Source of the DNA: Escherichia coli
Lineage (GTDB): Bacteria; Pseudomonadota; Gammaproteobacteria; Enterobacterales; Enterobacteriaceae
DNA: 64,000 bases
Reading direction: 5' to 3' (one strand)
Assembly (NCBI RefSeq): GCF_041248615.1
Contig: NZ_CP158426.1
Positions within the stretch are counted from its first letter, which is position 1; the number at the start of each line of letters is the position of its first letter. Of this stretch, positions 35,870 through 60,857 are shown piece after piece. The notes under the pieces were generated by a model. It saw nothing but the letters and a program-made list of their open reading frames with translations. It did no database searches and was not told the DNA's origin. The translations under genes and the position numbers were made by a program.

Positions 35870-37534
35870 TTAAAACGTTTCCCAATTCTCGCCGCTATCT
35901 GCCACGGCCATTTTACGCGGCGTAGCTGGCGTCACGGTTTTTACTACAGCCGATGTTTCACGCTGCTGTTGCTGCTGTTGCTGAATCCGGAACACTGCCA
36001 CAGCTTCGGTCAGGCGACTGGCCTGCTCTTCCAGCGCGGCAGCGGCGGCGGCAGATTCTTCCACCAGCGCGGCGTTCTGTTGAGTTACCCGGTCCATCTC
36101 AGCAACCGCTAATCCAACCTGATCGATACCACGGCTCTGCTCATCAGAAGCAGAAGCAATTTCGCCCATAATGTCCGTCACGCGGGTCACGGCACTGACA
36201 ATCTCCGCCATTGTTTCCCCTGCGCTTTCGACCAGCGTAGAGCCAACATCCACTTTCCCCACCGAGTCTTCAATCAGGCTTTTAATTTCACGAGCCGCCT
36301 GGGCGCTGCGCTGGGCCAGATTACGCACTTCTCCCGCGACCACCGCAAAACCGCGCCCTTGCTCACCCGCGCGCGCTGCTTCAACCGCCGCGTTCAAAGC
36401 CAGAATATTGGTCTGGAAGGCAATGCCGTCAATTACGCTGATAATATCGGCGATTTTCTGCGAACTGGTGGAGATATCGCGCATAGTCTGCACCACGTTA
36501 TCCACCACTTTGCCGCCGCGTTGCGCCGTTTCAGAAGCACTTAACGCCAGCTGGCTGGCCTGGCGCGCATTTTCGGCGTTCTGCTTCACCGTTGCGGTCA
36601 GTTGCTCCATGCTGGCTGCCGTCTCTTCCAGCGAAGCGGCCTGTTGCTCGGTGCGCGAAGAGAGATCGTTATTACCGGTGGCGATTTCGCTGGCACCGCT
36701 ATAGATGGCATTGGCCCCGTTGCGCACATCACCGACGGTACGCATCAGCTCTCCCTGCATATGGCGCAAACTCTCTGCCAGTTGCCCCATCTCATTAGAG
36801 CCATCTACCTCAATCGGTTTCACCAGATCGCCGCCTGCAATATGACGAATGCTGTCAATCAGGCGATTCATTGGCGCTACCAACGAGGCTTTAATACCGA
36901 ACCAGACGGCGAAGATGACCGCCAGTACGACGATCATCACGCCCACCAGGATCCACATCGCCTGGCTGTAGGAGGCATTATTATCGCTGACGGCGATATC
37001 ATAGAGCCGATCGTTTTGCTCCATGTAAGCCACATACTGCTTCTCGAAACCGTCCTGATATCCCTGGGTCGGCTGATCAAAGAACTCGTTGATTTTGCCT
37101 GCACCTAACAGTTGGATCAGCTCCGCCAGCGCATTGTGATAAATATCGTAATTACGTTTGATCTCTGCCGCTGCGGCGGTGCTCTGACGCGGGTCACGCG
37201 GCAACGCTTCGTAATCCGCCCAGTTTTTTTCCGCCTGTTTCAGCGAAATACTGGCACTCTGCATCAGCTCAGCAACGGTTGAACCGCTACCAATATTATT
37301 CTGATCCATCATGTAGCGGATACCCGCGCGGTTGAGGGTGTTACGCGTCTGCAACAACGCAACCCAGCTGCCATTCAGCGTGGATTGCTGCTGGCGAATG
37401 GTTTGTAAAACAGTGAAATTTTCTTTGTCATTCTTTAAGGCATTAAAGAACAGACCGCCTGATGTCAGTTGTAAAAGGCCAAAAACGGCCAAAACCAGCA
37501 GTAAGCTGGTCACAATTTTGATACGTTTTAACAT
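35870..37534 (-). CDS. tsr: serine chemoreceptor Tsr (554 aa; Gln run is 3 residues longer than the recalled K-12 protein)
   Basis: MCP with HAMP and methylation motifs, C-terminal NWETF; matches recalled Tsr. Confidence 0.95.
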
Positions 37535-37652
37535 GGTTTCTCTTTCCTGTGGACCGATGCAAGATTTTCGGCCTGGAAAGCAAAAACTTTATGAAAAGGT
37601 GTAACCCGCCATCCATGGAAAAACCAGGCGCTGGTTATCAGATATTAAAAAG

Positions 37653-38099
37653 TTATTCATTATCGCCCGGGATGTCTTCTTGTCGGGAATTACCCAGAGC
37701 AATAAATTCCTCTAACAGATGGGTTAACTGTTGCATTTTCTCGGCAGTAAACTGAGCTTCAATCTGCCGATAGGCTTCTTCAATCTGTGTCTGAGCGCGG
37801 TTATACAGGGCCTGCCCCTCTTTGGTCAGCGAGATATAGAGCTTCCGCTGATCATTGATCGGCTTTAATCGCAACACTAAACCGTCGCGTTCCATCCGCG
37901 TGAGGATCCCGGTCAGGCTTGGGCGCAAAATGCAGGCGCGATACGCCAGATCGTGAAAATCCATTGATGGGCTTTCCGCCAGAATACGCACGATGCGCCA
38001 CTGTTGCTCAGTCAAATTATGCCGTTTAACGATTGGGCGAAAATAACTCATCGCCGCTTCTCGCGCCTGGAGCAACGCAATGGTTAGTGAGTCGTGCAT
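37653..38099 (-). CDS. hpaR: MarR-family repressor HpaR (148 aa from ATG 38099)
   Basis: MHDSLTIALLQAREAAMSYFRP... MarR wHTH; divergent from hpaG. Confidence 0.85.
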   Translation of the reverse strand: MHDSLTIALLQAREAAMSYFRPIVKRHNLTEQQWRIVRILAESPSMDFHDLAYRACILRPSLTGILTRMERDGLVLRLKPINDQRKLYISLTKEGQALYNRAQTQIEEAYRQIEAQFTAEKMQQLTHLLEEFIALGNSRQEDIPGDNE

Positions 38100-38370
38100 T
38101 ATCTTTCCCCTGAAAAATTCAAAATCATTAATATAGAAACAGTTAATCATCACATTACTGGGACTGAGCTATCCCCGCAATTCCTCATTTTATCAAAATT
38201 GAGCATACTTTATTAACTTACTGATATTTAGTATTTTATTACCTGCAAATGTAAATAGTTTGTTAATTGGATCACATTTACATCACTTACTTTTGCCAAA
38301 CTTCGCAATCGGGAATAAAAGTAATCATTAACATATTAATGATTAAAATGATCGAATCCGAGGAGTGGTA

Positions 38371-39660
38371 ATGAAAGGCACTATCTTCGCCGTAGCGTTG
38401 AACCATCGCAGCCAGCTTGATGCATGGCAGGAAGCGTTCCAGCAATCCCCCTACAAAGCCCCGCCTAAAACTGCGGTCTGGTTTATTAAACCGCGCAATA
38501 CGGTGATTGGTTGCGGTGAACCGATTCCCTTTCCACAGGGTGAAAAAGTACTGAGCGGTGCGACTGTTGCGCTGATTGTGGGGAAAACGGCGACGAAAGT
38601 ACGTGAAGAAGATGCGGCAGAGTACATCGCCGGATATGCGCTGGCTAACGACGTCAGCCTGCCGGAAGAGAGCTTTTACCGCCCGGCAATCAAAGCAAAA
38701 TGTCGTGATGGATTCTGCCCCATTGGCGAAACCGTGGCTCCCAGCAATGTCGATAATCTGACTATCTATACCGAGATCAACGGGCGTCCTGCCGATCATT
38801 GGAACACCGCCGATTTACAACGTAACGCCGCGCAGTTGCTGAGCGCTCTGAGCGAATTTGCCACGCTGAATCCAGGCGATGCCATTCTGCTCGGCACGCC
38901 ACAGGCGCGCGTGGAAATACAGCCAGGCGATCGCGTGCGTGTTCTCGCAGAAGGTTTCCCGCCACTGGAAAATCCGGTAGTGGACGAACGTGAAGTGACC
39001 ACGCGCAAGAGCTTCCCAACGCAGCCACACCCGCACGGCACGCTGTTTGCCCTCGGCCTGAACTACGCCGACCACGCCAGCGAACTGGAATTTAAGCCAC
39101 CGGAAGAACCGCTGGTGTTCCTGAAAGCGCCGAATACCCTCACTGGCGATAACCAGACCTCCGTGCGCCCGAACAATATTGAATACATGCACTACGAAGC
39201 GGAGCTGGTGGTAGTTATTGGCAAGCAGGCGCGTAACGTCAGCGAAGCCGATGCCATGGATTATGTCGCGGGCTACACCGTGTGTAACGACTACGCCATT
39301 CGCGACTATCTGGAAAACTACTACCGCCCTAACCTGCGGGTAAAAAGCCGCGACGGACTGACGCCGATGCTTTCAACCATCGTGCCGAAAGAGGCGATCC
39401 CGGACCCGCATAATCTGACCCTTCGCACCTTCGTCAACGGCGAGTTACGCCAGCAAGGCACCACCGCCGATCTGATCTTCAGCGTGCCCTTCCTGATCGC
39501 CTACTTAAGCGAATTTATGACCCTGAATCCGGGCGACATGATCGCCACCGGCACACCAAAAGGCTTATCTGACGTGGTGCCTGGCGATGAAGTAGTGGTG
39601 GAAGTAGAAGGCGTGGGCCGCCTGGTGAACCGAATTGTGAGTGAGGAAACAGCGAAATGA
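38371..39660 (+). CDS. hpaG: bifunctional OPET decarboxylase / HHDD isomerase HpaG (429 aa, ATG 38371)
   Basis: tandem FAH-family domains; AGGAG SD; first gene of the hpa meta-cleavage operon. Confidence 0.9.
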   Translation: MKGTIFAVALNHRSQLDAWQEAFQQSPYKAPPKTAVWFIKPRNTVIGCGEPIPFPQGEKVLSGATVALIVGKTATKVREEDAAEYIAGYALANDVSLPEESFYRPAIKAKCRDGFCPIGETVAPSNVDNLTIYTEINGRPADHWNTADLQRNAAQLLSALSEFATLNPGDAILLGTPQARVEIQPGDRVRVLAEGFPPLENPVVDEREVTTRKSFPTQPHPHGTLFALGLNYADHASELEFKPPEEPLVFLKAPNTLTGDNQTSVRPNNIEYMHYEAELVVVIGKQARNVSEADAMDYVAGYTVCNDYAIRDYLENYYRPNLRVKSRDGLTPMLSTIVPKEAIPDPHNLTLRTFVNGELRQQGTTADLIFSVPFLIAYLSEFMTLNPGDMIATGTPKGLSDVVPGDEVVVEVEGVGRLVNRIVSEETAK

Positions 39661-41123
39661 AAAAAGTAAATCATTGGATCAACGGCAAAAATGTTGCAGG
39701 TAACGACTACTTCCAGACCACCAATCCGGCAACGGGTGAAGTGCTGGCAGATGTGGCCTCCGGCGGTGAAGCGGAGATCAATCAGGCGGTAGCGGCAGCG
39801 AAAGAGGCGTTCCCGAAATGGGCCAATCTGCCGATGAAAGAGCGTGCGCGCCTGATGCGCCGTCTGGGCGATCTGATCGACCAGAACGTGCCTGAGATCG
39901 CCGCGATGGAAACCGCGGACACGGGCCTGCCGATCCATCAGACCAAAAATGTATTGATCCCACGCGCTTCTCACAACTTTGAATTTTTCGCGGAAGTCTG
40001 CCAGCAGATGAACGGCAAGACCTATCCGGTTGACGACAAGATGCTCAACTACACGCTGGTGCAACCGGTAGGCGTTTGTGCGCTGGTATCGCCGTGGAAC
40101 GTGCCGTTTATGACCGCCACATGGAAGGTCGCGCCGTGTCTGGCGCTGGGCAATACCGCGGTGTTGAAAATGTCGGAACTCTCCCCGCTGACCGCTGACC
40201 GCCTGGGTGAGCTGGCGCTGGAAGCCGGTATTCCGGCGGGCGTGCTGAACGTGGTACAGGGCTACGGCGCAACCGCAGGCGATGCGCTGGTTCGTCATCA
40301 TGACGTACGTGCCGTGTCGTTCACCGGCGGTACGGCCACCGGGCGCAACATCATGAAAAACGCCGGGCTGAAAAAATACTCCATGGAACTGGGCGGTAAA
40401 TCGCCGGTGCTGATTTTTGAAGATGCCGATATTGAACGCGCGCTGGACGCTGCCCTGTTCACCATCTTCTCGATCAACGGCGAGCGCTGCACCGCCGGTT
40501 CGCGCATCTTTATTCAGCAAAGCATCTACCCGGAATTCGTTAAACGCTTTGCCGAACGCGCCAACCGTCTGCGCGTGGGCGATCCGAACGATCCGAATAC
40601 CCAGGTTGGGGCGCTTATCAGCCAGCAACACTGGGAAAAAGTCTCCGGCTATATTCGTCTCGGCATTGAAGAAGGCGCAACCCTGCTAGCGGGCGGTCCG
40701 GATAAACCGTCCGACCTGCCTGCGCACCTGAAAGGCGGCAACTTCCTGCGCCCAACGGTGCTGGCTGACGTTGATAACCGTATGCGCGTCGCCCAGGAAG
40801 AGATTTTCGGGCCGGTCGCCTGTCTGCTGCCGTTTAAAGACGAAGCTGAAGGTCTGCGCCTGGCAAATGACGTGGAGTATGGCCTCGCGTCGTACATCTG
40901 GACGCAGGATGTCAGCAAAGTGTTACGCCTGGCGCGTGGCATTGAAGCAGGCATGGTGTTCGTCAACACCCAGAACGTGCGCGACCTGCGCCAGCCGTTT
41001 GGCGGCGTAAAAGCCTCCGGCACCGGGCGTGAAGGCGGTGAGTACAGCTTCGAAGTGTTCGCGGAAATGAAGAACGTCTGCATTTCCATGGGCGACCATC
41101 CAATTCCGAAATGGGGAGTCTGA
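39657..41123 (+). CDS. hpaE: 5-carboxymethyl-2-hydroxymuconate semialdehyde dehydrogenase HpaE
   Basis: 488 aa aldehyde dehydrogenase (catalytic Cys in GERCTAGS, ELGGKSP). Confidence 0.9.
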   Translation: MKKVNHWINGKNVAGNDYFQTTNPATGEVLADVASGGEAEINQAVAAAKEAFPKWANLPMKERARLMRRLGDLIDQNVPEIAAMETADTGLPIHQTKNVLIPRASHNFEFFAEVCQQMNGKTYPVDDKMLNYTLVQPVGVCALVSPWNVPFMTATWKVAPCLALGNTAVLKMSELSPLTADRLGELALEAGIPAGVLNVVQGYGATAGDALVRHHDVRAVSFTGGTATGRNIMKNAGLKKYSMELGGKSPVLIFEDADIERALDAALFTIFSINGERCTAGSRIFIQQSIYPEFVKRFAERANRLRVGDPNDPNTQVGALISQQHWEKVSGYIRLGIEEGATLLAGGPDKPSDLPAHLKGGNFLRPTVLADVDNRMRVAQEEIFGPVACLLPFKDEAEGLRLANDVEYGLASYIWTQDVSKVLRLARGIEAGMVFVNTQNVRDLRQPFGGVKASGTGREGGEYSFEVFAEMKNVCISMGDHPIPKWGV

Positions 41124-41124
41124 T

Positions 41125-41976
41125 ATGGGTAAGTTAGCGTTAGCCGCCAAAATCACGCACGTACCGTCGATGTATCTCTCTGAACTGCCAGGGAAAAACC
41201 ACGGTTGCCGCCAGGGTGCGATCGACGGGCATAAAGAGATCAGCAAGCGTTGCCGGGAAATGGGCGTCGATACCATTATCGTTTTCGATACTCACTGGCT
41301 GGTCAACAGTGCTTATCACATCAACTGTGCAGACCATTTTGAAGGCGTCTACACCAGTAACGAGCTGCCGCATTTTATTCGTGACATGACCTACAACTAC
41401 GAGGGCAACCCGGAGTTGGGGCAGCTTATTGCCGATGAAGCGTTAAAACTCGGCGTGCGGGCAAAAGCGCACAATATTCCCAGCCTGAAACTGGAATACG
41501 GCACGCTGGTGCCAATGCGCTACATGAATGAAGACAAGCACTTCAAAGTGGTCTCCATTTCGGCTTTCTGCACGGTTCACGATTTTGCCGACAGCCGCAA
41601 GCTTGGCGAAGCGATTTTGAAAGCAATCGAACAGTACGACGGCACCGTGGCGGTCCTTGCCAGCGGTTCGTTATCGCACCGCTTTATTGACGATCAGCGT
41701 GCAGAAGAAGGGATGAACAGCTACACCCGCGAGTTCGACCGCCAGATGGACGAGCGCGTGGTGAAGCTGTGGCGCGAAGGCCAGTTCAAAGAGTTCTGCA
41801 ATATGCTGCCGGAGTACGCCGACTACTGCTACGGCGAAGGCAATATGCACGACACGGTGATGCTGCTGGGGATGCTCGGCTGGGATAAATACGACGGCAA
41901 GGTGGAGTTTATTACCGAGCTGTTCCCAAGCTCTGGCACCGGTCAGGTTAACGCTGTTTTCCCGCTTCCCGCGTAA
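41125..41976 (+). CDS. hpaD: homoprotocatechuate 2,3-dioxygenase HpaD
   Basis: 283 aa extradiol dioxygenase in conserved hpa order. Confidence 0.9.
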   Translation: MGKLALAAKITHVPSMYLSELPGKNHGCRQGAIDGHKEISKRCREMGVDTIIVFDTHWLVNSAYHINCADHFEGVYTSNELPHFIRDMTYNYEGNPELGQLIADEALKLGVRAKAHNIPSLKLEYGTLVPMRYMNEDKHFKVVSISAFCTVHDFADSRKLGEAILKAIEQYDGTVAVLASGSLSHRFIDDQRAEEGMNSYTREFDRQMDERVVKLWREGQFKEFCNMLPEYADYCYGEGNMHDTVMLLGMLGWDKYDGKVEFITELFPSSGTGQVNAVFPLPA

Positions 41977-41985
41977 GGAACCACC

Positions 41986-42366
41986 ATGCCGCACTTTATC
42001 GTGGAATGTACTGAAAATATTCGTCAAGAAGCCCGCTTACCTGAGCTGTTTGCCAGTGTTAACACCGCACTGGCGGCGACGGGGATTTTTCCGCTTGGGG
42101 GAATACGTAGCCGGGCGCACTGGATCGATACCTGGCAAATGGCTGATGGCAAGCACGATTACGCCTTTGTGCATATGACGCTAAAAATCGGCAGCGGGCG
42201 CAGTCTGGAAAGCCGTCAGGAAGTAGGCGAAATGCTGTTTGATCTGATTAAAACGCACTTCGCCTCACTGATGGAGAGCCGTTACCTGGCGCTTTCATTT
42301 GAGATTGCAGAGCTGCACCCGACGTTGAATTTCAAACAGAACAACGTACACGCGTTGTTTAAATAA
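41986..42366 (+). CDS. hpaF: 5-carboxymethyl-2-hydroxymuconate isomerase HpaF
   Basis: 126 aa, [12 protein letters not shown]... CHMI family. Confidence 0.9.
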
Positions 42367-42433
42367 ATTTGTACCAGCTTCCAGGCCGGATGATAAGGCG
42401 CAGCCGCATCCGGCAATGCCACAGGATATCGCC

Positions 42434-43237
42434 ATGTTCGATAAACACACCCACACCCTGATCGCCCAGCGTCTGGATCAGGCAGAAAAACAGCGCGAAC
42501 AGATCCGCGCGATCTCGCTGGATTACCCGGAGATCACCATCGAAGACGCCTACGCCGTACAGCGCGAATGGGTCCGCCTGAAAATTGCCGAAGGCCGTAC
42601 GCTGAAAGGCCACAAAATCGGCCTGACCTCAAAAGCGATGCAGGCAAGCTCGCAGATCAGCGAACCGGATTACGGCGCACTGCTGGACGACATGTTCTTC
42701 CACGATGGCAGCGATATCCCGACCGATCGCTTTATCGTGCCGCGCATTGAAGTGGAGCTGGCTTTTGTGCTGGCAAAACCGCTGCGTGGGCCAAACTGCA
42801 CGCTGTTCGACGTTTACAACGCCACGGACTACGTGATCCCGGCACTGGAGCTGATCGACGCTCGCTGCCACAACATCGATCCGGAAACCCAGCGCCCGCG
42901 CAAAGTATTCGACACCATTTCCGATAATGCCGCCAACGCCGGAGTGATCCTCGGCGGTCGTCCCATTAAGCCCGATGAGTTGGATCTACGTTGGATCTCC
43001 GCCCTGATGTATCGCAACGGCGTGATTGAAGAAACCGGCGTCGCCGCTGGCGTGCTGAATCACCCGGCAAACGGCGTGGCCTGGCTGGCGAACAAACTCG
43101 CACCGTATGACGTGCAACTGGAAGCCGGGCAAATCATTCTCGGCGGTTCGTTCACCCGCCCGGTTCCGGCGCGTAAGGGCGACACCTTCCACGTCGATTA
43201 CGGCAACATGGGTTCCATTAGCTGCCGCTTTGTTTAA
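42434..43237 (+). CDS. hpaH: 2-oxo-hept-3-ene-1,7-dioate hydratase HpaH (267 aa)
   Basis: hydratase family; start set to ATG 42434. Confidence 0.85.
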
Positions 43238-43247
43238 GGAGAGAACG

Positions 43248-44036
43248 ATGGAAAACAGTTTTAAAGCGGCGCTGAAAGCAGGCCGTCCGCAGATCGGATT
43301 ATGGCTGGGGCTGAGCAGCAGCTACAGCGCAGAGTTACTGGCCGGAGCAGGATTCGACTGGTTATTGATCGACGGTGAGCACGCGCCGAATAACGTGCAA
43401 ACCGTGCTCACCCAGCTACAGGCGATTGCGCCCTACCCCAGCCAGCCGGTAGTACGTCCGTCGTGGAACGATCCGGTGCAAATCAAACAACTGCTGGACG
43501 TCGGCACACAAACCTTACTGGTGCCGATGGTTCAAAACGCTGACGAAGCCCGTGAAGCGGTACGCGCCACCCGTTATCCCCCCGCCGGTATTCGCGGTGT
43601 GGGCAGTGCGCTGGCCCGCGCCTCGCGCTGGAATCGCATTCCTGATTACCTGCAAAAAGCCAACGATCAAATGTGCGTACTGGTGCAGATCGAAACTCGT
43701 GAGGCAATGAAGAACCTACCGCAGATTCTGGACGTGGAAGGGGTAGACGGCGTGTTTATCGGCCCGGCGGATCTGAGCGCCGATATGGGTTATGCCGGTA
43801 ATCCGCAGCACCCGGAAGTGCAGGCCGCCATTGAACAGGCGATCGTGCAAATCCGTGAAGCGGGCAAAGCTCCGGGGATCCTGATCGCCAATGAGCAACT
43901 GGCAAAACGCTACCTGGAACTGGGCGCGCTATTTGTCGCCGTCGGCGTTGACACCACCCTGCTCGCCCGCGCCGCCGAAGCGCTGGCAGCACGGTTTGGC
44001 GCGCAGGCCACGACCGTTAAGCCCGGCGTGTATTAA
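43248..44036 (+). CDS. hpaI: 2,4-dihydroxyhept-2-ene-1,7-dioate aldolase HpaI (262 aa)
   Basis: [20 protein letters not shown]...; class II aldolase; ORF-track upstream extension rejected. Confidence 0.9.
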
Positions 44037-44043
44037 TGCTGAA

Positions 44044-44108
44044 TGCGCTTATCCGGCTTACAGCAGTACCAAACTGTAGCCGGATAAGGCGTTTACGCCG
44101 CATCCGCC
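44044..44108. repeat. REP/BIME element
   Basis: GCGCTTATCCGGCTTACA ... TGTAGCCGGATAAGGCGTTTACGCCGCATCCG palindromic units. Confidence 0.7.
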
Positions 44109-44153
44109 ATAAATCTTGTCGTACCCTACAAAAATCCCATTAGAGGAAGAAAA

Positions 44154-45530
44154 ATGAGCGACACCTCACCTGCCATACCGGAAAGTATCGATCCGGCAAA
44201 TCAGCATAAAACGCTGACTGCCGGACAACAGGCGGTTATTAAGAAGCTATTTCGCCGCCTGATCGTCTTTCTGTTCGTGCTGTTTATCTTCTCGTTCCTT
44301 GATCGCATCAACATCGGCTTTGCCGGGCTAACGATGGGACGCGACCTCGGTCTGAGCGCCACCATGTTTGGCCTCGCCACCACCCTGTTCTATGCCGCTT
44401 ATGTCATCTTCGGCATTCCCAGCAACATTATGCTGAGTATTGTCGGTGCGCGGCGCTGGATCGCCACCATCATGGTGCTCTGGGGCATCGCCTCTACGGC
44501 CACCATGTTTGCCACTGGCCCCACCAGCTTATACGTACTGCGTATACTGGTTGGCATTACCGAAGCCGGCTTTCTGCCTGGCATTCTGCTGTATTTAACC
44601 TTCTGGTTTCCGGCCTATTTCCGCGCCCGTGCCAACGCCTTGTTTATGGTAGCAATGCCGGTAACGACAGCGCTGGGATCGATCGTTTCCGGCTACATTT
44701 TGTCGCTGGATGGCGTAATGGCATTAAAAGGCTGGCAGTGGCTGTTTTTGCTGGAAGGCTTCCCGTCGGTATTACTCGGCGTCATGGTGTGGTTCTGGCT
44801 TGATGACTCACCGGACAAAGCTAAGTGGCTGACGAAAGAAGACAAAAAATGCCTGCAAGAGATGATGGATAACGATCGTCTGACGCTGGTTCAGCCAGAG
44901 GGAGCCATCAGTCACCACGCCATGCAACAACGCAGCATGTGGCGGGAGATCTTCACTCCGGTGGTGATGATGTATACCCTGGCGTATTTCTGCCTGACCA
45001 ACACACTTAGTGCAATCAGCATCTGGACACCGCAGATCCTACAAAGCTTTAATCAGGGCAGCAGTAATATCACCATCGGCCTGCTGGCCGCCGTACCGCA
45101 GATTTGTACCATTCTCGGGATGATCTACTGGAGCCGTCACTCAGATCGCCGCCAGGAACGAAGGCATCACACCGCCCTTCCTTATTTGTTCGCTGCCGCT
45201 GGTTGGTTACTGGCTTCGGCAACTGATCACAACATGATCCAGATGCTGGGGATCATTATGGCTTCGACCGGATCATTCAGCGCAATGGCGATTTTCTGGA
45301 CAACACCGGATCAGTCCATCAGCCTGCGGGCACGAGCGATCGGTATTGCGGTGATCAACGCCACTGGCAACATTGGTTCAGCGTTAAGTCCGTTTATAAT
45401 CGGCTGGTTGAAAGATCTGACCGGCAGCTTTAACAGTGGATTGTGGTTTGTTGCCGCGCTGCTGGTGATTGGTGCGGGGATTATCTGGGCAATTCCAATG
45501 CAGTCCTCCCGTCCGCGAGCGACCCCGTAA
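44154..45530 (+). CDS. hpaX: MFS 4-hydroxyphenylacetate permease HpaX
   Basis: 458 aa, 12-TM MFS in the hpa cluster. Confidence 0.9.
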   Translation: MSDTSPAIPESIDPANQHKTLTAGQQAVIKKLFRRLIVFLFVLFIFSFLDRINIGFAGLTMGRDLGLSATMFGLATTLFYAAYVIFGIPSNIMLSIVGARRWIATIMVLWGIASTATMFATGPTSLYVLRILVGITEAGFLPGILLYLTFWFPAYFRARANALFMVAMPVTTALGSIVSGYILSLDGVMALKGWQWLFLLEGFPSVLLGVMVWFWLDDSPDKAKWLTKEDKKCLQEMMDNDRLTLVQPEGAISHHAMQQRSMWREIFTPVVMMYTLAYFCLTNTLSAISIWTPQILQSFNQGSSNITIGLLAAVPQICTILGMIYWSRHSDRRQERRHHTALPYLFAAAGWLLASATDHNMIQMLGIIMASTGSFSAMAIFWTTPDQSISLRARAIGIAVINATGNIGSALSPFIIGWLKDLTGSFNSGLWFVAALLVIGAGIIWAIPMQSSRPRATP

Positions 45531-45539
45531 GGAACGACG

Positions 45540-46430
45540 ATGTGTGACCGTCAGATTGCCAATATTGATATCAGCAAAGAGTACGATGAAAGCCTGGGCA
45601 CGGACGATGTGCATTATCAGTCCTTCGCCCGCATGGCGGCATTTTTTGGCCGCCATATGCTGCCACATCGCCACGAACAGTACTTTCAGATGCATTTCCT
45701 CAATAGCGGACAGATTGAGCTACAGCTTGACGATCATCGCTACTCGGTGGAAGCGCCCCTGTTTGTCCTGACGCCGCCGTCAGTACCTCATGCGTTTATT
45801 ACGGAGTCTGACGCCGACGGTCATGTGTTGACGGTACGGGAAGATCTGATCTGGCCCCTGCTGGAAGTTCTTTATCCGGGCACTCGGGAAACCTTCGGCC
45901 TGCCGGGGATTTGCCTGTCACTGGCAGATAAACCCGACGAACTGGCAGCGCTGGAACACTATTGGCAACTGATAGAGCGGGAATCGGTGGAACAACTGCC
46001 TGGACGGGAACACACCCTGACGTTACTGGCACAGGCAGTATTCACCCTACTGCTGCGTAACGCAAAACTCGACGACCATGCCGCCAGCGGGATGCGCGGA
46101 GAATTAAAACTGTTCCAGCGTTTTAATATGCTGATTGAAAGCCATTTTCATCAGCACTGGACAGTACCGGATTACGCTAACGAACTGCATATCACCGAAT
46201 CACGTCTCACGGACATCTGCCGCCGCTTTGCCAACCGTCCGCCAAAACGGTTGATTTTCGACAGGCAGCTGCGAGAAGCCAAGCGGCTGCTGCTGTTTTC
46301 TGATAACGCCGTGAACAATATTGCCTGGCAACTCGGTTTTAAGGATCCGGCTTATTTTGCGCGCTTTTTTAATCGTTTAGTCGGTTGCTCGCCCAGTGCT
46401 TATCGTGCCAAAAAAGTACCTGTGACGTGA
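45540..46430 (+). CDS. hpaA: AraC-family activator HpaA
   Basis: 296 aa with C-terminal AraC HTH. Confidence 0.9.
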   Translation: MCDRQIANIDISKEYDESLGTDDVHYQSFARMAAFFGRHMLPHRHEQYFQMHFLNSGQIELQLDDHRYSVEAPLFVLTPPSVPHAFITESDADGHVLTVREDLIWPLLEVLYPGTRETFGLPGICLSLADKPDELAALEHYWQLIERESVEQLPGREHTLTLLAQAVFTLLLRNAKLDDHAASGMRGELKLFQRFNMLIESHFHQHWTVPDYANELHITESRLTDICRRFANRPPKRLIFDRQLREAKRLLLFSDNAVNNIAWQLGFKDPAYFARFFNRLVGCSPSAYRAKKVPVT

Positions 46431-46680
46431 AAATCCCTTAGCCTTAACGGGAAACCAGGCACCACCTGCTATTCCCCTTTCTCCGCCTGGAGCAAGGGGA
46501 TTTAGTAACGTCAAAAATCGCTAAAAGCGACCTCGATCACAAAACCGTACCCGACCTGAAAAGTACCAGCCATTGTCCCAAAAGTGTCTTCCCGTAATCG
46601 CCCCTGCAAGCTTCAATTGAATAACAAAAACAACACACAAAATTAACAATCGTATTCCGATTAATACTGTAGAGGTCGAC

Positions 46681-48243
46681 ATGAAACCAGAAGATTTCCG
46701 CGCCAGTACCCAACGTCCGTTCACCGGGGAAGAGTATCTGAAAAGCCTGCAGGATGGTCGCGAGATCTATATCTACGGCGAGCGAGTGAAAGACGTCACC
46801 ACTCATCCGGCATTTCGTAATGCGGCAGCGTCTGTTGCCCAACTGTACGACGCGCTGCACAAACCGGAGATGCAGGACTCTCTGTGTTGGAATACCGACA
46901 CCGGCAGTGGCGGCTATACCCATAAATTCTTCCGCGTGGCGAAAAGTGCCGACGACCTGCGCCAGCAACGCGATGCCATCGCTGAATGGTCACGCCTGAG
47001 CTATGGCTGGATGGGCCGTACCCCAGACTACAAAGCCGCTTTCGGTTGCGCACTGGGCGCGAATCCGGGCTTTTACGGTCAGTTCGAGCAGAACGCCCGT
47101 AACTGGTACACCCGTATTCAGGAAACTGGCCTCTACTTTAACCACGCGATTGTTAACCCACCGATCGATCGTCATTTGCCGACCGATAAAGTGAAAGACG
47201 TTTACATCAAGCTGGAAAAAGAGACTGACGCCGGGATTATCGTCAGCGGTGCGAAAGTGGTTGCCACCAACTCGGCGCTGACTCACTACAACATGATTGG
47301 CTTCGGCTCGGCACAAGTGATGGGCGAAAACCCGGACTTCGCACTGATGTTCGTTGCGCCAATGGATGCCGATGGCGTGAAATTAATCTCCCGCGCCTCT
47401 TATGAGATGGTCGCGGGTGCTACCGGCTCGCCGTACGACTACCCGCTCTCCAGCCGCTTCGATGAGAACGATGCGATTCTGGTGATGGATAACGTGCTGA
47501 TCCCATGGGAAAACGTGCTGATCTACCGCGATTTTGATCGCTGCCGTCGCTGGACGATGGAAGGCGGTTTCGCCCGTATGTATCCGCTGCAAGCCTGTGT
47601 GCGCCTGGCAGTGAAACTCGACTTCATTACGGCACTGCTGAAAAAATCACTCGAATGTACCGGCACCCTGGAGTTCCGTGGTGTGCAGGCCGATCTCGGT
47701 GAAGTGGTGGCGTGGCGCAACACCTTCTGGGCATTGAGTGACTCGATGTGTTCAGAAGCGACGCCGTGGGTCAACGGGGCTTATTTACCGGATCATGCCG
47801 CACTGCAAACCTATCGCGTACTGGCACCAATGGCCTATGCGAAGATCAAAAACATTATCGAACGCAACGTTACCAGTGGCCTGATCTATCTCCCTTCCAG
47901 TGCCCGTGACCTGAACAATCCGCAGATCGACCAGTATCTGGCGAAGTATGTGCGCGGTTCGAATGGTATGGATCACGTCCAGCGCATCAAGATCCTCAAA
48001 CTGATGTGGGACGCCATTGGCAGCGAGTTTGGTGGTCGTCACGAACTGTATGAAATCAACTACTCCGGTAGCCAGGATGAGATTCGCCTGCAATGTCTGC
48101 GCCAGGCACAAAGCTCCGGCAATATGGACAAGATGATGGCGATGGTTGATCGCTGCCTGTCGGAATACGACCAGAACGGCTGGACTGTGCCACACCTGCA
48201 CAACAACGACGATATCAACATGCTGGATAAGCTGCTGAAATAA
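46681..48243 (+). CDS. hpaB: 4-hydroxyphenylacetate 3-monooxygenase oxygenase component HpaB
   Basis: 520 aa two-component flavin-dependent monooxygenase. Confidence 0.95.
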   Translation: MKPEDFRASTQRPFTGEEYLKSLQDGREIYIYGERVKDVTTHPAFRNAAASVAQLYDALHKPEMQDSLCWNTDTGSGGYTHKFFRVAKSADDLRQQRDAIAEWSRLSYGWMGRTPDYKAAFGCALGANPGFYGQFEQNARNWYTRIQETGLYFNHAIVNPPIDRHLPTDKVKDVYIKLEKETDAGIIVSGAKVVATNSALTHYNMIGFGSAQVMGENPDFALMFVAPMDADGVKLISRASYEMVAGATGSPYDYPLSSRFDENDAILVMDNVLIPWENVLIYRDFDRCRRWTMEGGFARMYPLQACVRLAVKLDFITALLKKSLECTGTLEFRGVQADLGEVVAWRNTFWALSDSMCSEATPWVNGAYLPDHAALQTYRVLAPMAYAKIKNIIERNVTSGLIYLPSSARDLNNPQIDQYLAKYVRGSNGMDHVQRIKILKLMWDAIGSEFGGRHELYEINYSGSQDEIRLQCLRQAQSSGNMDKMMAMVDRCLSEYDQNGWTVPHLHNNDDINMLDKLLK

Positions 48244-48260
48244 CGCAGCAGGAGGTTAAG

Positions 48261-48773
48261 ATGCAATTAGATGAACAACGCCAGCGCTTTCGTGACGCAA
48301 TGGCCAGCCTGTCGGCAGCGGTAAATATTATCACCACCGAGGGCGACGCCGGACAATGCGGGATTACGGCAACGGCTGTCTGCTCGGTCACGGACACACC
48401 ACCGTCGCTGATGGTGTGCATTAACGCCAACAGTGCGATGAACCCGGTTTTTCAGGGCAACGGCAAGTTGTGCGTCAACGTCCTCAACCATGAGCAGGAA
48501 CTGATGGCACGCCACTTCGCGGGCATGACAGGCATGGCGATGGAAGAGCGTTTTAGCCTCTCATGCTGGCAAAAAGGTCCGCTGGCGCAGCCGGTGCTAA
48601 AAGGTTCGCTGGCCAGTCTTGAAGGTGAGATCCGCGATGTGCAGGCAATTGGCACACATCTGGTGTATCTGGTGGAGATTAAAAACATCATCCTCAGTGC
48701 AGAAGGTCACGGACTTATCTACTTTAAACGCCGTTTCCATCCGGTGATGCTGGAAATGGAAGCTGCGATTTAA
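48261..48773 (+). CDS. hpaC: NAD(P)H-flavin reductase HpaC
   Basis: 170 aa flavin reductase following hpaB. Confidence 0.95.
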   Translation: MQLDEQRQRFRDAMASLSAAVNIITTEGDAGQCGITATAVCSVTDTPPSLMVCINANSAMNPVFQGNGKLCVNVLNHEQELMARHFAGMTGMAMEERFSLSCWQKGPLAQPVLKGSLASLEGEIRDVQAIGTHLVYLVEIKNIILSAEGHGLIYFKRRFHPVMLEMEAAI

Positions 48774-48779
48774 GCTCCA

Positions 48780-48815
48780 GCCCCTTCACGCATTCGTCGA
48801 AGGGGCATTTTTATT
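48780..48815 (+). terminator. intrinsic terminator after hpaC
   Basis: GCCCCTTC (48780..48787) pairs with GAAGGGGC (48799..48806), then ATTTTTATT. Confidence 0.6.
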
Positions 48816-49165
48816 GTGATCTCAATCACATATCCACCCGATGAATAATTCTTGCCCAACCGCTCACCGCCATTCCTGACCGCTTACATCCCTAAAATAA
48901 CCACTCAGTTATTTACCTTACTTTACGCGCGCGTAACTCTGGCAACATCACTGCAGGATAGCGGTCAATTTACCTCCTCAAACGCAACGCAAACCTAGAA
49001 CGGCTTCGGCCTATGATTAACAAATTACTCTATGGATTTTGGTTTGCAGGAAGGCAGCAAGTGAGTGAATCCCCGGGAGCTTACAACAGTAAGTGACAGG
49101 GGTGAACGAACGCAGCTGCCGCACCTGTAAGCCAAAAGACGACGAGTAAAATGCCAGGTTTTACT

Positions 49166-51316
49166 ATGGATACGAAAAAACTATTCAAGCACATACCCTG
49201 GGTGATTCTCGGAATCATCGGTGCATTCTGCCTCGCGGTAGTTGCATTACGTCGGGGGGAGCACGTCAGCGCCCTGTGGATCGTGGTCGCCTCTGTGTCG
49301 GTGTATCTGGTGGCTTATCGCTACTACAGTCTGTACATCGCCCAGAAGGTAATGAAACTCGACCCCACGCGCGCGACGCCTGCGGTTATTAACAACGACG
49401 GTCTGAACTACGTTCCGACCAACCGTTACGTGTTGTTTGGTCACCACTTCGCCGCTATCGCCGGTGCTGGTCCGCTGGTTGGTCCGGTTCTCGCCGCGCA
49501 GATGGGCTACCTGCCTGGCACGCTGTGGCTGCTGGCGGGGGTCGTGCTGGCCGGTGCAGTACAGGACTTTATGGTGCTGTTTATCTCCTCTCGCCGTAAC
49601 GGCGCATCTCTCGGTGAGATGATCAAAGAAGAGATGGGACCAGTACCGGGGACTATCGCGCTGTTTGGCTGTTTCTTAATCATGATCATCATCCTCGCCG
49701 TTCTGGCGCTGATTGTGGTTAAAGCCCTGGCCGAAAGTCCGTGGGGTGTCTTCACCGTTTGCTCAACCGTACCGATTGCGCTGTTTATGGGTATCTACAT
49801 GCGCTTTATCCGTCCGGGGCGTGTGGGTGAAGTTTCTGTCATTGGTATCGTGCTGCTGGTTGCCTCTATCTACTTCGGTGGCGTGATTGCACACGATCCG
49901 TACTGGGGTCCGGCACTGACCTTTAAAGACACCACCATTACCTTCGCGCTGATTGGCTATGCGTTTGTTTCCGCACTGCTGCCAGTGTGGCTAATCCTCG
50001 CACCGCGCGACTATCTGGCAACCTTCCTGAAAATCGGTGTTATCGTCGGCCTGGCGCTGGGTATCGTGGTGCTGAACCCGGAACTGAAAATGCCTGCGAT
50101 GACTCAGTACATTGACGGTACTGGCCCGCTGTGGAAAGGCGCTCTGTTCCCGTTCCTGTTCATCACCATCGCCTGTGGTGCGGTATCTGGCTTCCACGCG
50201 CTGATCTCTTCCGGTACGACGCCGAAACTGCTGGCTAACGAAACCGACGCGCGTTTCATTGGCTACGGCGCAATGCTGATGGAGTCCTTCGTGGCGATTA
50301 TGGCGCTGGTTGCTGCGTCCATCATCGAACCGGGTCTTTACTTCGCGATGAATACCCCGCCTGCTGGCCTTGGCATCACCATGCCTAACCTGCATGAAAT
50401 GGGTGGCGAGAACGCGCCGATCATCATGGCGCAGCTGAAAGACGTTACCGCACACGCGGCAGCGACCGTCAGCTCCTGGGGCTTCGTGATTTCGCCAGAG
50501 CAGATCCTGCAAACCGCGAAAGACATTGGTGAGCCTTCTGTCCTGAACCGTGCAGGTGGTGCGCCAACGCTGGCGGTAGGTATCGCTCACGTGTTCCACA
50601 AAGTGCTGCCGATGGCTGACATGGGCTTCTGGTATCACTTCGGTATTCTGTTCGAAGCCCTGTTCATCCTGACCGCGCTGGATGCGGGTACCCGTTCTGG
50701 CCGCTTTATGCTGCAAGACCTGCTGGGTAACTTCATCCCGTTCCTGAAAAAAACCGACTCTCTGGTTGCCGGTATCATCGGTACTGCGGGCTGTGTGGGT
50801 CTGTGGGGCTACCTGCTGTATCAGGGCGTGGTCGATCCGCTGGGCGGCGTTAAGAGCCTGTGGCCGCTGTTCGGTATCTCCAACCAGATGCTGGCAGCCG
50901 TGGCGCTGGTACTGGGTACCGTTGTGCTGATTAAGATGAAGCGCACCCAATACATCTGGGTAACTGTTGTTCCGGCTGTATGGCTGCTTATCTGCACTAC
51001 CTGGGCGCTGGGCCTGAAACTGTTCAGCACCAACCCGCAGATGGAAGGCTTCTTCTACATGGCAAGCCAGTACAAAGAGAAGATTGCTAACGGTACTGAC
51101 CTGACGGCGCAGCAGATTGCCAACATGAACCACATCGTTGTGAACAACTACACCAACGCAGGCCTGAGTATTCTGTTCCTGATTGTGGTGTACAGCATCA
51201 TCTTCTACGGTTTCAAAACCTGGCTGAAGGTGCGTAACAGCGACAAACGTACTGACAAAGAAACACCGTACGTTCCAATCCCGGAAGGCGGCGTGAAGAT
51301 CTCTTCGCACCACTAA
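49166..51316 (+). CDS. btsT: pyruvate/H+ symporter BtsT (YjiY), CstA family (716 aa)
   Basis: MDTKKLFKHIPWVILGIIG...; polytopic CstA-family transporter. Confidence 0.95.
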   Translation: MDTKKLFKHIPWVILGIIGAFCLAVVALRRGEHVSALWIVVASVSVYLVAYRYYSLYIAQKVMKLDPTRATPAVINNDGLNYVPTNRYVLFGHHFAAIAGAGPLVGPVLAAQMGYLPGTLWLLAGVVLAGAVQDFMVLFISSRRNGASLGEMIKEEMGPVPGTIALFGCFLIMIIILAVLALIVVKALAESPWGVFTVCSTVPIALFMGIYMRFIRPGRVGEVSVIGIVLLVASIYFGGVIAHDPYWGPALTFKDTTITFALIGYAFVSALLPVWLILAPRDYLATFLKIGVIVGLALGIVVLNPELKMPAMTQYIDGTGPLWKGALFPFLFITIACGAVSGFHALISSGTTPKLLANETDARFIGYGAMLMESFVAIMALVAASIIEPGLYFAMNTPPAGLGITMPNLHEMGGENAPIIMAQLKDVTAHAAATVSSWGFVISPEQILQTAKDIGEPSVLNRAGGAPTLAVGIAHVFHKVLPMADMGFWYHFGILFEALFILTALDAGTRSGRFMLQDLLGNFIPFLKKTDSLVAGIIGTAGCVGLWGYLLYQGVVDPLGGVKSLWPLFGISNQMLAAVALVLGTVVLIKMKRTQYIWVTVVPAVWLLICTTWALGLKLFSTNPQMEGFFYMASQYKEKIANGTDLTAQQIANMNHIVVNNYTNAGLSILFLIVVYSIIFYGFKTWLKVRNSDKRTDKETPYVPIPEGGVKISSHH

Positions 51317-52595: not shown

Positions 52596-52604
52596 TTAGA
52601 TATG

Positions 52605-54257: not shown

Positions 54258-54534
54258 TTCATATACCCAATCAAACAATCAACAATAACATTATCTTTCT
54301 TGCTCGAAAGAAACGCAACTATAAGATTTTTATATATTTTGTTAGAGTTGATATGGTTCCTGTAACTTCTGTTTATCTGTCTCTGATATGCCCAGATTAA
54401 TTCAAGCAAGATATAACAGAGATATCAATGTGATCTCTGCTACGTACTTTACGTTGAAACACCGCCCTAAATCATAGCCAGGCTATTGATTTTATGTACA
54501 ATCAGAATCGTCCTGATAAAAGCGAGAATACCCC

Positions 54535-56967: not shown

Positions 56968-56981
56968 CAACTCTCTTTTGC

Positions 56982-57020
56982 GCCTTCTGCAACCATCATG
57001 TTGCAGAAGGCCTTGTTTTT
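56982..57020 (+). terminator. perfect 11-12-bp hairpin plus T-run in the hsdR-hsdM spacer
   Basis: GCCTTCTGCAA (56982..56992) pairs with TTGCAGAAGGC (57001..57011), then CTTGTTTTT. Confidence 0.5.
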
Positions 57021-57033
57021 CATGGAATACAAC

Positions 57034-60248: not shown

Positions 60249-60374
60249 TTTTCTCGCCCTCAAAAAAACCAATAAAGCGGCTCAATAGCCGCTTTATTAA
60301 CATCACCAAAAATTATATTTCACGCTAATTTTCATCTTATTTTCATTAATTTTTAGCTGGACTTTCCCTGTATT

Positions 60375-60394
60375 TACTGATGATATATCCAGGT
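60375..60394. promoter_or_regulatory. putative LexA box in the symE promoter region
   Basis: TACTGATGATATATCCAGGT matches the LexA consensus at 14/20 (CTG-N10-CAG); symE is SOS-induced (established). Confidence 0.4.
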
Positions 60395-60396
60395 AT

Positions 60397-60811: not shown

Positions 60812-60857
60812 TACATTGACCCGGTAGCGCCAGTGCTACCGGGTATTATTCGCCACG

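Follow-up and report, generated by a model that had tools for sequence, protein, structure and literature searches.

The window analysed here is a 64,000-nucleotide stretch of Escherichia coli DNA (assembly GCF_041248615.1, contig NZ_CP158426.1), in which hpaR, hpaGEDFHI, hpaX, hpaA and hpaBC span positions 37653-48773 in the characterised order (n = 11 genes), between tsr and btsT (Table 1). The genome of E. coli NRZ14408 (NZ_LT599825.1) is 100% identical to the window over 36000-50500, and its RefSeq annotation lists eleven hpa CDS, with no pseudogene flags. All 11 Hpa proteins matched NCBIfam equivalog models end to end and above the curated cut-offs (e.g. HpaR at 201 bits against TIGR02337, with a cut-off of 121), and internal stops were found in 0 of the 11 hpa genes. 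The eleven ordered genes proposed in an earlier, sequence-only reading are thus borne out by annotation and model matches. To judge from these gene models, the interval is almost certainly the complete and intact hpa (homoprotocatechuate meta-cleavage) cluster of E. coli, and it is the already known, ordinary eleven-gene set. In the W and C systems, 3- and 4-hydroxyphenylacetate are imported by HpaX, and substrate-bound HpaA switches on the hpaBC promoter. The two-component flavin-dependent monooxygenase HpaBC converts the substrate to 3,4-dihydroxyphenylacetate, which lifts HpaR repression of the hpaG promoter; the ring is then cleaved by HpaD and the product turned into pyruvate and succinic semialdehyde by HpaE, F, G, H and I.

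Table 1. Features of the tsr-btsT interval, in window coordinates.
Feature	Position	Strand	Basis or remark
tsr	35870-37534	minus	RefSeq annotation of NRZ14408; left neighbour of cluster
Predicted tsr sigma-28 (FliA) promoter	37565-37591	minus	-35 TAAAGTTT at 37584-37591, 11-nt spacer, -10 GCCGAAAA at 37565-37572
Putative hpaR terminator	37622-37636	minus	weak hairpin AACCAGCGCCTGGTT and U-run 3' of hpaR stop codon
hpaR, MarR-family repressor of meta-cleavage operon, 148 aa	37653-38099	minus	TIGR02337 equivalog
Divergent hpaR/hpaG promoter region	38100-38370		two HpaR-operator-like palindromes
hpaG, bifunctional decarboxylase/isomerase	38371-39660	+	NF011750, full length, above cut-off
hpaE, CHMS dehydrogenase	39657-41123	+	TIGR02299, full length, above cut-off
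hpaD, homoprotocatechuate 2,3-dioxygenase	41125-41976	+	TIGR02298, full length, above cut-off
hpaF, CHM isomerase, B-type allele	41986-42366	+	NF011605, full length, above cut-off
REP element, hpaF-hpaH spacer	42385-42414	minus	sequence, weak consensus match, hairpin
hpaH, hydratase	42434-43237	+	TIGR02312, above cut-off
hpaI, aldolase yielding pyruvate and succinic semialdehyde	43248-44036	+	TIGR02311, above cut-off
Inverted REP pair, BIME-like, hpaI-hpaX spacer	44045-44108		partial REP 44045-44061 (+), full REP 44076-44108 (minus)
hpaX, MFS 4-hydroxyphenylacetate permease	44154-45530	+	TIGR02332, above cut-off
hpaA, AraC/XylS-family activator of hpaBC	45540-46430	+	TIGR02297, above cut-off
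hpaA-hpaB spacer, HpaA-dependent hpaBC promoter region	46431-46680	+	regulatory role from literature
hpaB, oxygenase component of two-component 4-HPA 3-monooxygenase, Arg379	46681-48243	+	TIGR02310, above cut-off
hpaC, flavin reductase of the same monooxygenase	48261-48773	+	NF012030, above cut-off
hpaC intrinsic terminator, right cluster edge	48780-48814	+	stem 48780-48806, then T-run
btsT regulatory region	48815-48886	+	kept in all alleles
ERIC/IRU element, 127-bp imperfect palindrome	49024-49150		15 bp upstream of btsT start codon, outside cluster
btsT	49166-51316		RefSeq annotation of NRZ14408; right neighbour of cluster

The allele-specific segment covers 37596-48814 (11,219 bp) and occupies the gap from the tsr sigma-28 promoter to the btsT CRP/BtsR sites; its counterparts, as BLAST-defined fillers, are 133 bp in K-12 and 820 bp in the O157:H7-type allele. 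These limits were set from blastn breakpoints, junction sequences and a cross-genus alignment, in which homology restarts at the CRP box. On the left, K-12 homology stops at 37595, 4 bp upstream of the tsr promoter -35, this promoter being a predicted one since the FliA consensus (TAAAGTTT-N11-GCCGATAA) comes from established knowledge. Because the fold of the hpaR-side hairpin is not significant (z -0.57), its function as a terminator is likewise putative; approximately 42 bp adjoining hpaR are kept in Pseudocitrobacter. On the right, the hpaC terminator folds at dG -18 kcal/mol (z -4.28). The limits given in the sequence-only reading, 37653-48815, were accurate: the hpaR stop codon ends at 37653, and the btsT CRP box begins at 48815, one base beyond the terminator T-run. 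This box (TGTGATCTCAATCACA) lies at 48815-48830 and is followed at 48859-48886 by a BtsR/YehT direct repeat (ACCGCTCA-N12-ACCGCTTA). The K-12 YehT-binding oligonucleotide spans sequence homologous to this repeat region (PMC4847170), and yjiY is under cAMP-CRP control (PMC5431176). Within the cluster, a palindrome (TAATCATTAA-CATA-TTAATGATTA) is present at 38322-38345, with a related copy, detected by repeat search, 200 bp upstream at 38123-38146. HpaR sites are of the TTAA-N4-TTAA type and arranged as two sites (PMC7180172), and the two palindromes are candidate HpaR operators. The hpaA-hpaB spacer, which has a known regulatory role (PMC7180172), is 98-99.6% identical to those of W and B.

REP elements are confined to the cluster interior, in the hpaF-hpaH and hpaI-hpaX spacers. 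The former matches the REP consensus weakly (12 nt, E 0.075), with a hairpin, and the latter closely (28 nt at 96%, E 5e-9), with a hairpin of dG -33 kcal/mol (z -4.7). Both spacers vary in length, hpaF-hpaH being 67 bp in this strain and in B and 110 bp in W and C, and hpaI-hpaX 117 bp in this strain, 123 bp in B and 174 bp in W and C. Searches of the tsr-hpaR and hpaC-btsT spacers with the REP consensus found none. The suggestion that REPs both bound and punctuate the cluster therefore holds for the two internal spacers and fails for the edges, where REPs were rejected as boundaries in favour of the weak hairpin and U-run after hpaR on the left and the hpaC intrinsic terminator on the right. 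The right-flank repeat was also rejected as a REP; it is an ERIC/IRU element (ERIC core match 90%, dG -61.6 kcal/mol, z -10). This insertion is not present in the K-12 allele, the O157 allele or any other genus examined. ERIC has a median of 8 copies per genome, and a copy of at least 95% identity occurs in 2,060 genomes, against 2,072 hpa-positive genomes; the hpa haplotype and the ERIC element upstream of btsT are linked.

The hpa cluster of E. coli W (ATCC 9637/11105) was reportedly described by Prieto, Diaz and Garcia in 1996, and the hpc/hpa cluster of E. coli C by Roper et al. in 1993. In K-12 MG1655, tsr adjoins btsT across a 377-bp spacer and hpa is absent, as the sequence-only reading had stated; in B REL606, W and C all eleven genes sit at this tsr-btsT site, ordered as they are here, and that reading's description of the locus as B/C/W-like rather than K-12-like is correct. 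Growth on hydroxyphenylacetate has been reported for B, C and W and not for K-12, with B strains able to grow on 4-HPA (PMC7201708, PMC3446290). W shares gene number, order, orientation and location with the window, has HpaR, E, D, H, A and B of identical sequence, and differs by 1-3 substitutions each in HpaG, I, X and C. Its hpaC-btsT spacer is also 392 bp, so that the ERIC element is included; however, its hpaF is a different allele (80% nucleotide identity, 20 of 126 amino acids changed), its REP-containing spacers are longer, and pac (penicillin G acylase) lies beyond yjiA, a place taken in this strain by a DUF262 gene and a type I restriction-modification system. In E. coli B (REL606 and BL21(DE3)), locus, order and gene number are again the same, as are the sequences of HpaF, R, D, H and A, with 1-4 substitutions each in HpaG, E, I, X, B and C. 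E. coli C shares cluster order, tsr-btsT location and the DUF262 gene adjoining yjiA. Its HpaF/HpcD is of the W type, and the sequence of the CHMI structure 1OTG differs at about 20 positions from HpaF of this strain. The likeness to B, C and W is thus uneven at hpaF, where this strain carries the B-type allele.

The hpa cluster of this strain is apparently functional, to judge from its coding sequences and regulatory sites. The rival reading, a cryptic or non-functional cluster that private substitutions or promoter changes silence or weaken, so that growth on hydroxyphenylacetate could not be predicted from genotype, is very improbable. A single HpaB substitution (R379C) abolishes 3-HPA use in REL606, which has Cys379, and Arg379 is the form supporting growth on both 3-HPA and 4-HPA (PMC7201708); the window encodes Arg379, as do BL21(DE3) and W. 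This strain has private substitutions relative to both W and B, such as HpaG Pro124 (Leu in W and B) and HpaC Gln8 (Leu in W, B and 19/19 outgroup sequences), and outside the REPs no stretch diverges more from W and B than the hpaR-hpaG intergenic region (92-94% identity). However, HpaC residue 8 falls outside the conserved domain model, which starts at residue 10, all 11 reading frames are intact and full length above the equivalog cut-offs, and seven of the proteins are identical to those of HPA-growing strains. Moreover, the cluster has a palindrome resembling an HpaR operator, and both its terminator and its hpaA-hpaB promoter region are conserved.

Among 5,426 complete E. coli genomes, hpa DNA was present in 2,072 (38%), the K-12-type filler in 2,752 (51%), K-12 and ST131 among them, and the O157-type allele (820 bp, with an orphan ORF) in 363 (7%). 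The K-12 filler falls into two divergence classes, indicating a single old origin. The haplotype of the window is rare, with at least 99% identity in only 12 genomes. In strain 47-1826 the region from hpaH to past btsT has been lost, the breakpoint lying in the REP-bearing hpaF-hpaH spacer, a case of ongoing decay of the cluster. Beyond these genomes, hpaC is followed by btsT-yjiX-yjiA within 263-357 bp in nine species of about five genera (Citrobacter, Pseudocitrobacter, the oxytoca group of Klebsiella, Raoultella and 'Enterobacter sp.'), as found in a contig scan with exact peptide words that returned no genomes of E. albertii, E. fergusonii or S. enterica. From hpaR to hpaC the genes run as in the window in Citrobacter, Pseudocitrobacter, the Klebsiella oxytoca group and Raoultella. 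The order hpaC, terminator hairpin, CRP box and btsT-yjiX-yjiA is common to the nine species, and BtsR repeats follow the CRP box in the other-genera clusters as they do here. These clusters lack the ERIC element and are 78-93% identical to the window at the nucleotide level. Exactly the CRP box seen in the hpa allele occurs in 7/9 species (Klebsiella, Raoultella, Pseudocitrobacter and Enterobacter sp. 10-1), the two Citrobacter species being 1-2 bases off and K-12 and O157 2-3 bases off. Between CRP box and BtsR site, the window agrees with the outgroup consensus at 45/63 positions, K-12 at 39/63 and O157 at 34/63, albeit in a small sample; further downstream all three alleles agree equally (99-100/137). 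The neighbour on the hpaR side in other genera is not tsr and varies by genus, so that only the right-hand linkage is demonstrably old; in a divergent Escherichia lineage (L020), tsr adjoins hpaR as well.

In the sequence-only reading the cluster was an island inserted between tsr and btsT, and 'inserted' is probably the wrong direction of the event. Like a classical genomic or pathogenicity island, hpa is a strain-variable multi-gene block with an accessory metabolic trait. Unlike one, it has no integrase, IS or tRNA in the variable segment and no flanking direct repeats by repeat search, its composition is not atypical (54.4% G+C against 52.9% in flanking core genes), and it occupies an intergenic promoter gap for which several alternative alleles exist. 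The alternative, that a K-12-like spacer is ancestral and the 11-kb hpa segment was gained horizontally and inserted in the lineage of B, C, W and this strain, is unlikely. It would fit the K-12-type spacer being the commonest allele, found in distant phylogroups such as those of K-12 and ST131. In Pseudocitrobacter, moreover, hpaE, hpaD and hpaH are 92-93% identical to the window, against 86% for btsT and 85-86% for btsT/yjiA, suggesting that some inter-genus exchange is possible, and this strain may itself have acquired hpa from a different E. coli, through homologous recombination within tsr and btsT. The 133-bp K-12 filler has no detectable origin, which weighs against the replacement reading. 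However, except for the CRP box the filler has no counterpart in the hpa allele. Simple insertion would have retained the filler, which is missing from both sides of hpa; K-12 thus carries a replacement allele rather than an empty target site. Insertion is further opposed by the lack of mobility genes, target duplication and compositional anomaly, by the hpaC-btsT adjacency and shared intergenic architecture in about five other genera, and by the btsT upstream region, which is closest to the outgroups in the hpa allele. In addition, the cluster differs from its W and B counterparts by approximately 1-3%, as much as tsr and btsT do. Loss in K-12 is already favoured in PMC7201708, with reference to Diaz et al. 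2001.

The most economical interpretation is that the linkage is ancestral and that loss or replacement later gave rise to the K-12-type allele, and we infer from the synteny and junctions that the hpa arrangement is likely to be ancestral and lost in K-12. Taken as a whole, the account of a complete, apparently functional cluster that is an allele of a multi-allelic site, rather than a mobile island, is very probable. This old site would span exactly the gap from the tsr sigma-28 promoter to the CRP/BtsR sites of btsT, with hpa adjoining btsT as the ancestral state in Enterobacteriaceae. The K-12-type and O157-type alleles would be derived replacements, and all alleles may later have spread among E. 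coli lineages via ordinary homologous recombination.

The region between tsr and btsT carries a complete hpa cluster, in which all eleven genes lie in the characterised order that the sequence-only reading had given them: hpaR, divergent from hpaGEDFHI, then hpaX, hpaA and hpaBC. Gene coordinates were taken from the RefSeq annotation of the E. coli NRZ14408 chromosome (NZ_LT599825.1), which is 100% identical to the window over 36000-50500, and the same eleven ORFs are present in a mechanical ORF list of the window. No pseudogene flag is attached to any of the eleven genes in that annotation, and no internal stops or frameshifts were found in any of the ORFs, whose lengths equal those of E. coli W and B. 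Each of the eleven proteins matched its own NCBIfam equivalog over its full length and well above the curated cut-off, as with HpaB (1,110 bits; cut-off 885), HpaG (975; 811) and HpaR (201; 121). Seven are identical to a W or B counterpart, namely HpaR, HpaE, HpaD, HpaH, HpaA and HpaB to W and HpaF to B; HpaG, HpaI, HpaX and HpaC differ from W by 1-3 residues, and Pro124 of HpaG and Gln8 of HpaC are private changes. At HpaG position 124, a conservation check was confounded because the two halves of the protein are homologous and hit each other. Residue 379 of HpaB is Arg, the form that a 2020 study showed to be needed if both 3-HPA and 4-HPA are to support growth; in that study the REL606 protein is reported to have Cys379 (PMC7201708). 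The locus is a textbook hpa cluster, already known.

Features of the tsr-btsT region in the window (genes from the RefSeq annotation of the identical NRZ14408 sequence)
Feature	Coordinates	Strand	Remark
tsr	35870-37534	minus	left flank of hpa
sigma-28-type tsr promoter	37565-37591	minus	TAAAGTTT-N11-GCCGAAAA
hpaR	37653-38099	minus	
perfect palindrome	38322-38345		TAATCATTAA-CATA-TTAATGATTA; hpaR-hpaG spacer
hpaG	38371-39660		
hpaE	39657-41123		
hpaD	41125-41976		
hpaF	41986-42366		
REP	42385-42414		hpaF-hpaH spacer; REP consensus search
hpaH	42434-43237		
hpaI	43248-44036		
inverted partial + full REP pair	44045-44061 and 44076-44108		hpaI-hpaX spacer; 28 nt, 96% to consensus
hpaX	44154-45530		
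hpaA	45540-46430		
hpaB	46681-48243		
hpaC	48261-48773		
hpaC intrinsic terminator	48780-48806 + T-run		dG -18 kcal/mol, z -4.3 (folding)
CRP box (perfect)	48815-48830		TGTGATCTCAATCACA
BtsR/YehT direct repeat	48859-48886		ACCGCTCA-N12-ACCGCTTA
ERIC/IRU imperfect palindrome	49024-49150		127 bp; dG -61.6 kcal/mol, z -10
btsT	49166-51316		right flank of hpa

In K-12 MG1655, btsT (b4354) adjoins tsr (b4355) across a 377-bp spacer without hpa, and the earlier statement that K-12 has only an intergenic spacer here was borne out against that genome. B REL606, W and C each have this set of eleven genes between tsr and btsT, in identical order, so the background at this locus is indeed B/C/W-like rather than K-12-like. 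Growth on hydroxyphenylacetate has been reported for B, C and W but not for K-12 (PMC7201708), and hpa is a difference of B from K-12 that is paralleled in phenotype arrays on p-hydroxyphenylacetate (PMC3446290). Within the left flank, Tsr has 554 residues in the window, W and C and 551 in K-12 and B, and the part of tsr most divergent from B is its 3' end (35870-36070, ~90%).

Further from the cluster, the “immigration control region” to the right of yjiA (52600-63600) differs from K-12. It carries a low-G+C (33%) DUF262 gene, an EcoAI-family type I restriction-modification system, symE with the SymR RNA and a GmrSD-family nuclease, and its K-12 counterpart contains mrr, hsdRMS(EcoKI) and mcrBC. 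E. coli W also departs from the window here, with penicillin G acylase to the right of yjiA. At the other end of the window, a prophage-like mosaic element (1-19400) adjoins yjjG; it holds cspB/cspF, antitermination and RusA genes, IS1, IS1414, a tyrosine integrase and a gene for a 710-residue CHAT-domain protein, and Rfam places a cspA-type thermoregulator RNA at 516-955.

In blastn comparisons, homology of the window with K-12 stops at 37595 and with an O157:H7-type genome at 37592, and with both it picks up again at ~48860; between these breakpoints K-12 has 133 bp and O157-type strains 820 bp of their own sequence. The left breakpoint lies 4 bp upstream of a tsr promoter of the sigma-28 type, the consensus of which is well established. 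On the right, the strong hpaC terminator is followed directly by a CRP box and next by a BtsR/YehT direct repeat. A consensus promoter and terminator scan gave counts at or below shuffle expectation and overlooked the genuine hpaC terminator, the loop of which is longer than the scan allows; folding was used instead. The stretch homologous to the BtsR repeat is covered by the K-12 YehT-binding oligonucleotide (PMC4847170), and yjiY/btsT is under cAMP-CRP control (PMC5431176). With one breakpoint at the tsr promoter and the other at the btsT CRP box, the segment 37596-48814 exactly occupies the interval that separates two divergent promoter regions, both of which have to be kept.

The cluster had also been described as bounded and punctuated by REP elements, of which only the punctuation stands. 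With the consensus GCCGGATGCGGCG...CGCCTTATCCGGCCTAC, no match was found in either boundary spacer (tsr-hpaR or hpaC-btsT), and the only consensus matches near the cluster are internal (42403-42414 and 44079-44106), in the hpaF-hpaH and hpaI-hpaX spacers. The former spacer is 67 bp long in the window and B and 110 bp in W and C; the latter is 117 bp in the window, 123 bp in B and 174 bp in W and C. The edges of the cluster are set by neighbouring promoters and terminators, not by REP elements. Elsewhere in the window, a tandem REP/BIME array lies between rsmC and three tRNA-Leu genes (22400-22660), which Rfam scores as two copies of naRNA4, a nucleoid-associated ncRNA.

The description of the cluster as inserted between tsr and btsT is probably wrong, since the hpa and K-12 alleles are replacements of one another, mobility features are lacking and hpaC is linked to btsT in other genera. 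A mobile genomic island was considered and rejected: within 37596-48814 there is no integrase, transposase, IS, tRNA/att site or flanking direct repeat, and the closest integrase is ~18 kb off and belongs to an unrelated element. Searches for direct or inverted flanking repeats and target-site duplications returned only short, chance-level matches. Base composition is typical, with 54.4% G+C in the hpa segment versus 52.9% for lgoR-tsr plus btsT-yjiA, and the G+C and skew profile has no island signature. No RNA family was found inside the cluster when the whole window was run against Rfam at the gathering threshold. Only the CRP box is common to the hpa and K-12 alleles, and the difference between them is explained neither by clean insertion nor by clean deletion. 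Local alignment with shuffles detected no other K-12 filler remnant in the hpa segment or at its ends; with no filler in the hpa allele, nor the converse, beyond that box, the two alleles are replacements of one another and not an insertion into an empty site. The best alignment of the K-12 and O157 fillers is itself unconvincing (15 of 500 shuffles score as well). Moreover, the hpa segment of the window diverges from W and B by ~1-3% in a mosaic fashion, as do tsr and btsT, and only 12 of the 2,072 hpa-positive genomes reach at least 99% identity to the window; the cluster is therefore an old resident.

Outgroup comparisons bear on which allele is the older. A scan of species-representative genomes for HpaX returned 35 loci; it depends on exact 8-residue words, and the failure of E. 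albertii, E. fergusonii and S. enterica to be returned is not evidence that they lack hpa. In nine species (two of Citrobacter, two of Pseudocitrobacter, Klebsiella michiganensis, K. grimontii, K. spallanzanii, Raoultella terrigena and “Enterobacter sp. 10-1”), btsT-yjiX-yjiA follows hpaC after 263-357 bp. Intergenic alignment gave the same layout in all nine, namely hairpin, CRP box, BtsR repeats and btsT. The CRP box is that of the window in seven and differs by 1-2 bases in the two Citrobacter; those of K-12 and O157 are 2-3 bases off the box common to the window and outgroups. From the CRP box to the BtsR repeat, the positions agreeing with the outgroup consensus number 45 of 63 for the window, 39 for K-12 and 34 for O157, and downstream of this stretch the three are equal (99-100 of 137). 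The divergent Escherichia lineage L020 also has lgoT-tsr-hpaR, with tsr at 89% and lgoT at 83% nucleotide identity. The left neighbour of hpaR varies by genus, so only the btsT side of the linkage is demonstrably ancient. Taken together, the replacement alleles, the lack of mobility signs, the old divergence, the outgroup synteny and L020 favour hpa-btsT linkage as the ancestral state, with the K-12-type allele derived, and we consider this probable. A loss in K-12 is also proposed, from G+C content and phenotype, in a passage of PMC7201708 that cites Diaz et al. 2001.

Among 5,426 complete E. coli genomes, hpa DNA is present in 2,072 (38%; at least 80% of it in one piece in 2,019), the K-12 filler in 2,752 (51%) and the O157-type 820-bp allele with a 180-residue orphan ORF in 363 (7%), with ~240 genomes outside these three typed alleles. 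The K-12 filler, found in K-12 and ST131, falls into two divergence classes (at least 95% identity in 2,047 genomes and 90-95% in 710), as would be expected if the filler arose once, long ago, and not by deletion over and over. Phylogroup A holds both states, K-12 being without hpa and B and C with it, so evidently either homologous recombination has exchanged the alleles or they were sorted from a polymorphism of long standing. The O157-type allele (3094-3913 of the O157:H7-type locus L003) is AT-rich and occupies the same tsr-btsT site; its orphan ORF has no NCBIfam hit and, in Pfam, only a sub-threshold match to a TnsA-like N-terminal domain (E 0.068). Two independent variants of the cluster were also seen. 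Strain 47-1826 retains hpaR-hpaF; a large deletion runs from the hpaF-hpaH REP spacer, across btsT and the restriction region, as far as iraD. In Z1323HEC0462 the cluster has 12 genes, with one for an MBL-fold metallo-hydrolase placed between hpaA and hpaB. Decay of the cluster is ongoing, as in the 47-1826 deletion.

The hpa allele is itself polymorphic. A block of ~0.5 kb (~41870-42430), comprising hpaF and the hpaF-hpaH REP spacer, is 75-83% identical to W at the nucleotide level (about 80% to W and C) and 99-100% identical to B; the neighbouring hpa genes are 97-99% identical to both. Of 126 HpaF residues, 20 differ between the B/window and W/C forms; the E. coli C isomerase of known structure (1OTG) is of the W/C form. 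The two are about equally common, with 1,084 (B/window) and 987 (W) hpa-positive genomes. The W form of hpaF is 93% identical to that of Pseudocitrobacter, in line with neighbouring genes, and the B/window form is ~79% identical to all other genera and 96.6% to L020. The block either recombined long ago or is a dimorphism that has been maintained, and the outlying position of the B/window form could reflect an old gene conversion between lineages or balancing selection acting on the isomerase. Since B grows on 4-HPA, the form carried in the window is functional.

An intergenic ERIC/IRU element lies 15 bp upstream of the btsT ATG, and its core is 90% identical to the ERIC primer-derived consensus. 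Copies of the element occur at a median of 8 places per genome (5,425 genomes); at btsT neither the K-12 nor the O157 allele has it, nor does any other genus examined. In 2,060 genomes a copy reaches 95% identity or more, against 2,072 genomes with hpa, and the 392-bp hpaC-btsT spacer is common to B, W and C; these near-equal counts and the shared spacer make the ERIC element part of the hpa haplotype. It could alter btsT mRNA stability or translation, and as an hpa-linked hairpin in the btsT 5' leader it could tie the alleles to differing btsT expression. The alleles of the tsr-btsT gap may comprise hpa as the ancestral one, a K-12-type filler that arose once and an orphan ORF of the O157 type; that the gap is an ancient multi-allelic site maintained across E. 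coli, with a nested hpaF dimorphism and an hpa-linked ERIC element, is put forward tentatively, as somewhat under an even chance.

The account of the pathway is based on work in E. coli W and C (PMC7180172, PMC7201708) and on general background. Substrate would be imported by HpaX, and 3- or 4-HPA would be hydroxylated to homoprotocatechuate by HpaB with the flavin reductase HpaC, after which HpaD, E, F, G, H and I would yield pyruvate and succinic semialdehyde. HpaA, of the AraC/XylS family, is expected to activate hpaBC, and the MarR-family HpaR to repress hpaGEDFHI and hpaR itself until induction. The hpaR-hpaG spacer holds a perfect palindrome and a related copy 200 bp upstream of it. Two TTAA-N4-TTAA sites have been described for the HpaR family (PMC7180172), and the palindromes fit such sites as candidate operators.

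From its gene content the isolate, unlike K-12, is predicted to use 3- and 4-hydroxyphenylacetate. Both compounds arise in the gut when tyrosine and polyphenols are broken down, and the HpaBC hydroxylase, which the isolate carries, is in wide biotechnological use. The locus has little importance past strain typing, with minor population-genetics leads in the hpaF dimorphism and the hpa-linked ERIC element in the btsT leader. What changes is that hpa is better regarded as a block of ancestral DNA that K-12-type strains have probably lost, and not as an acquired island.
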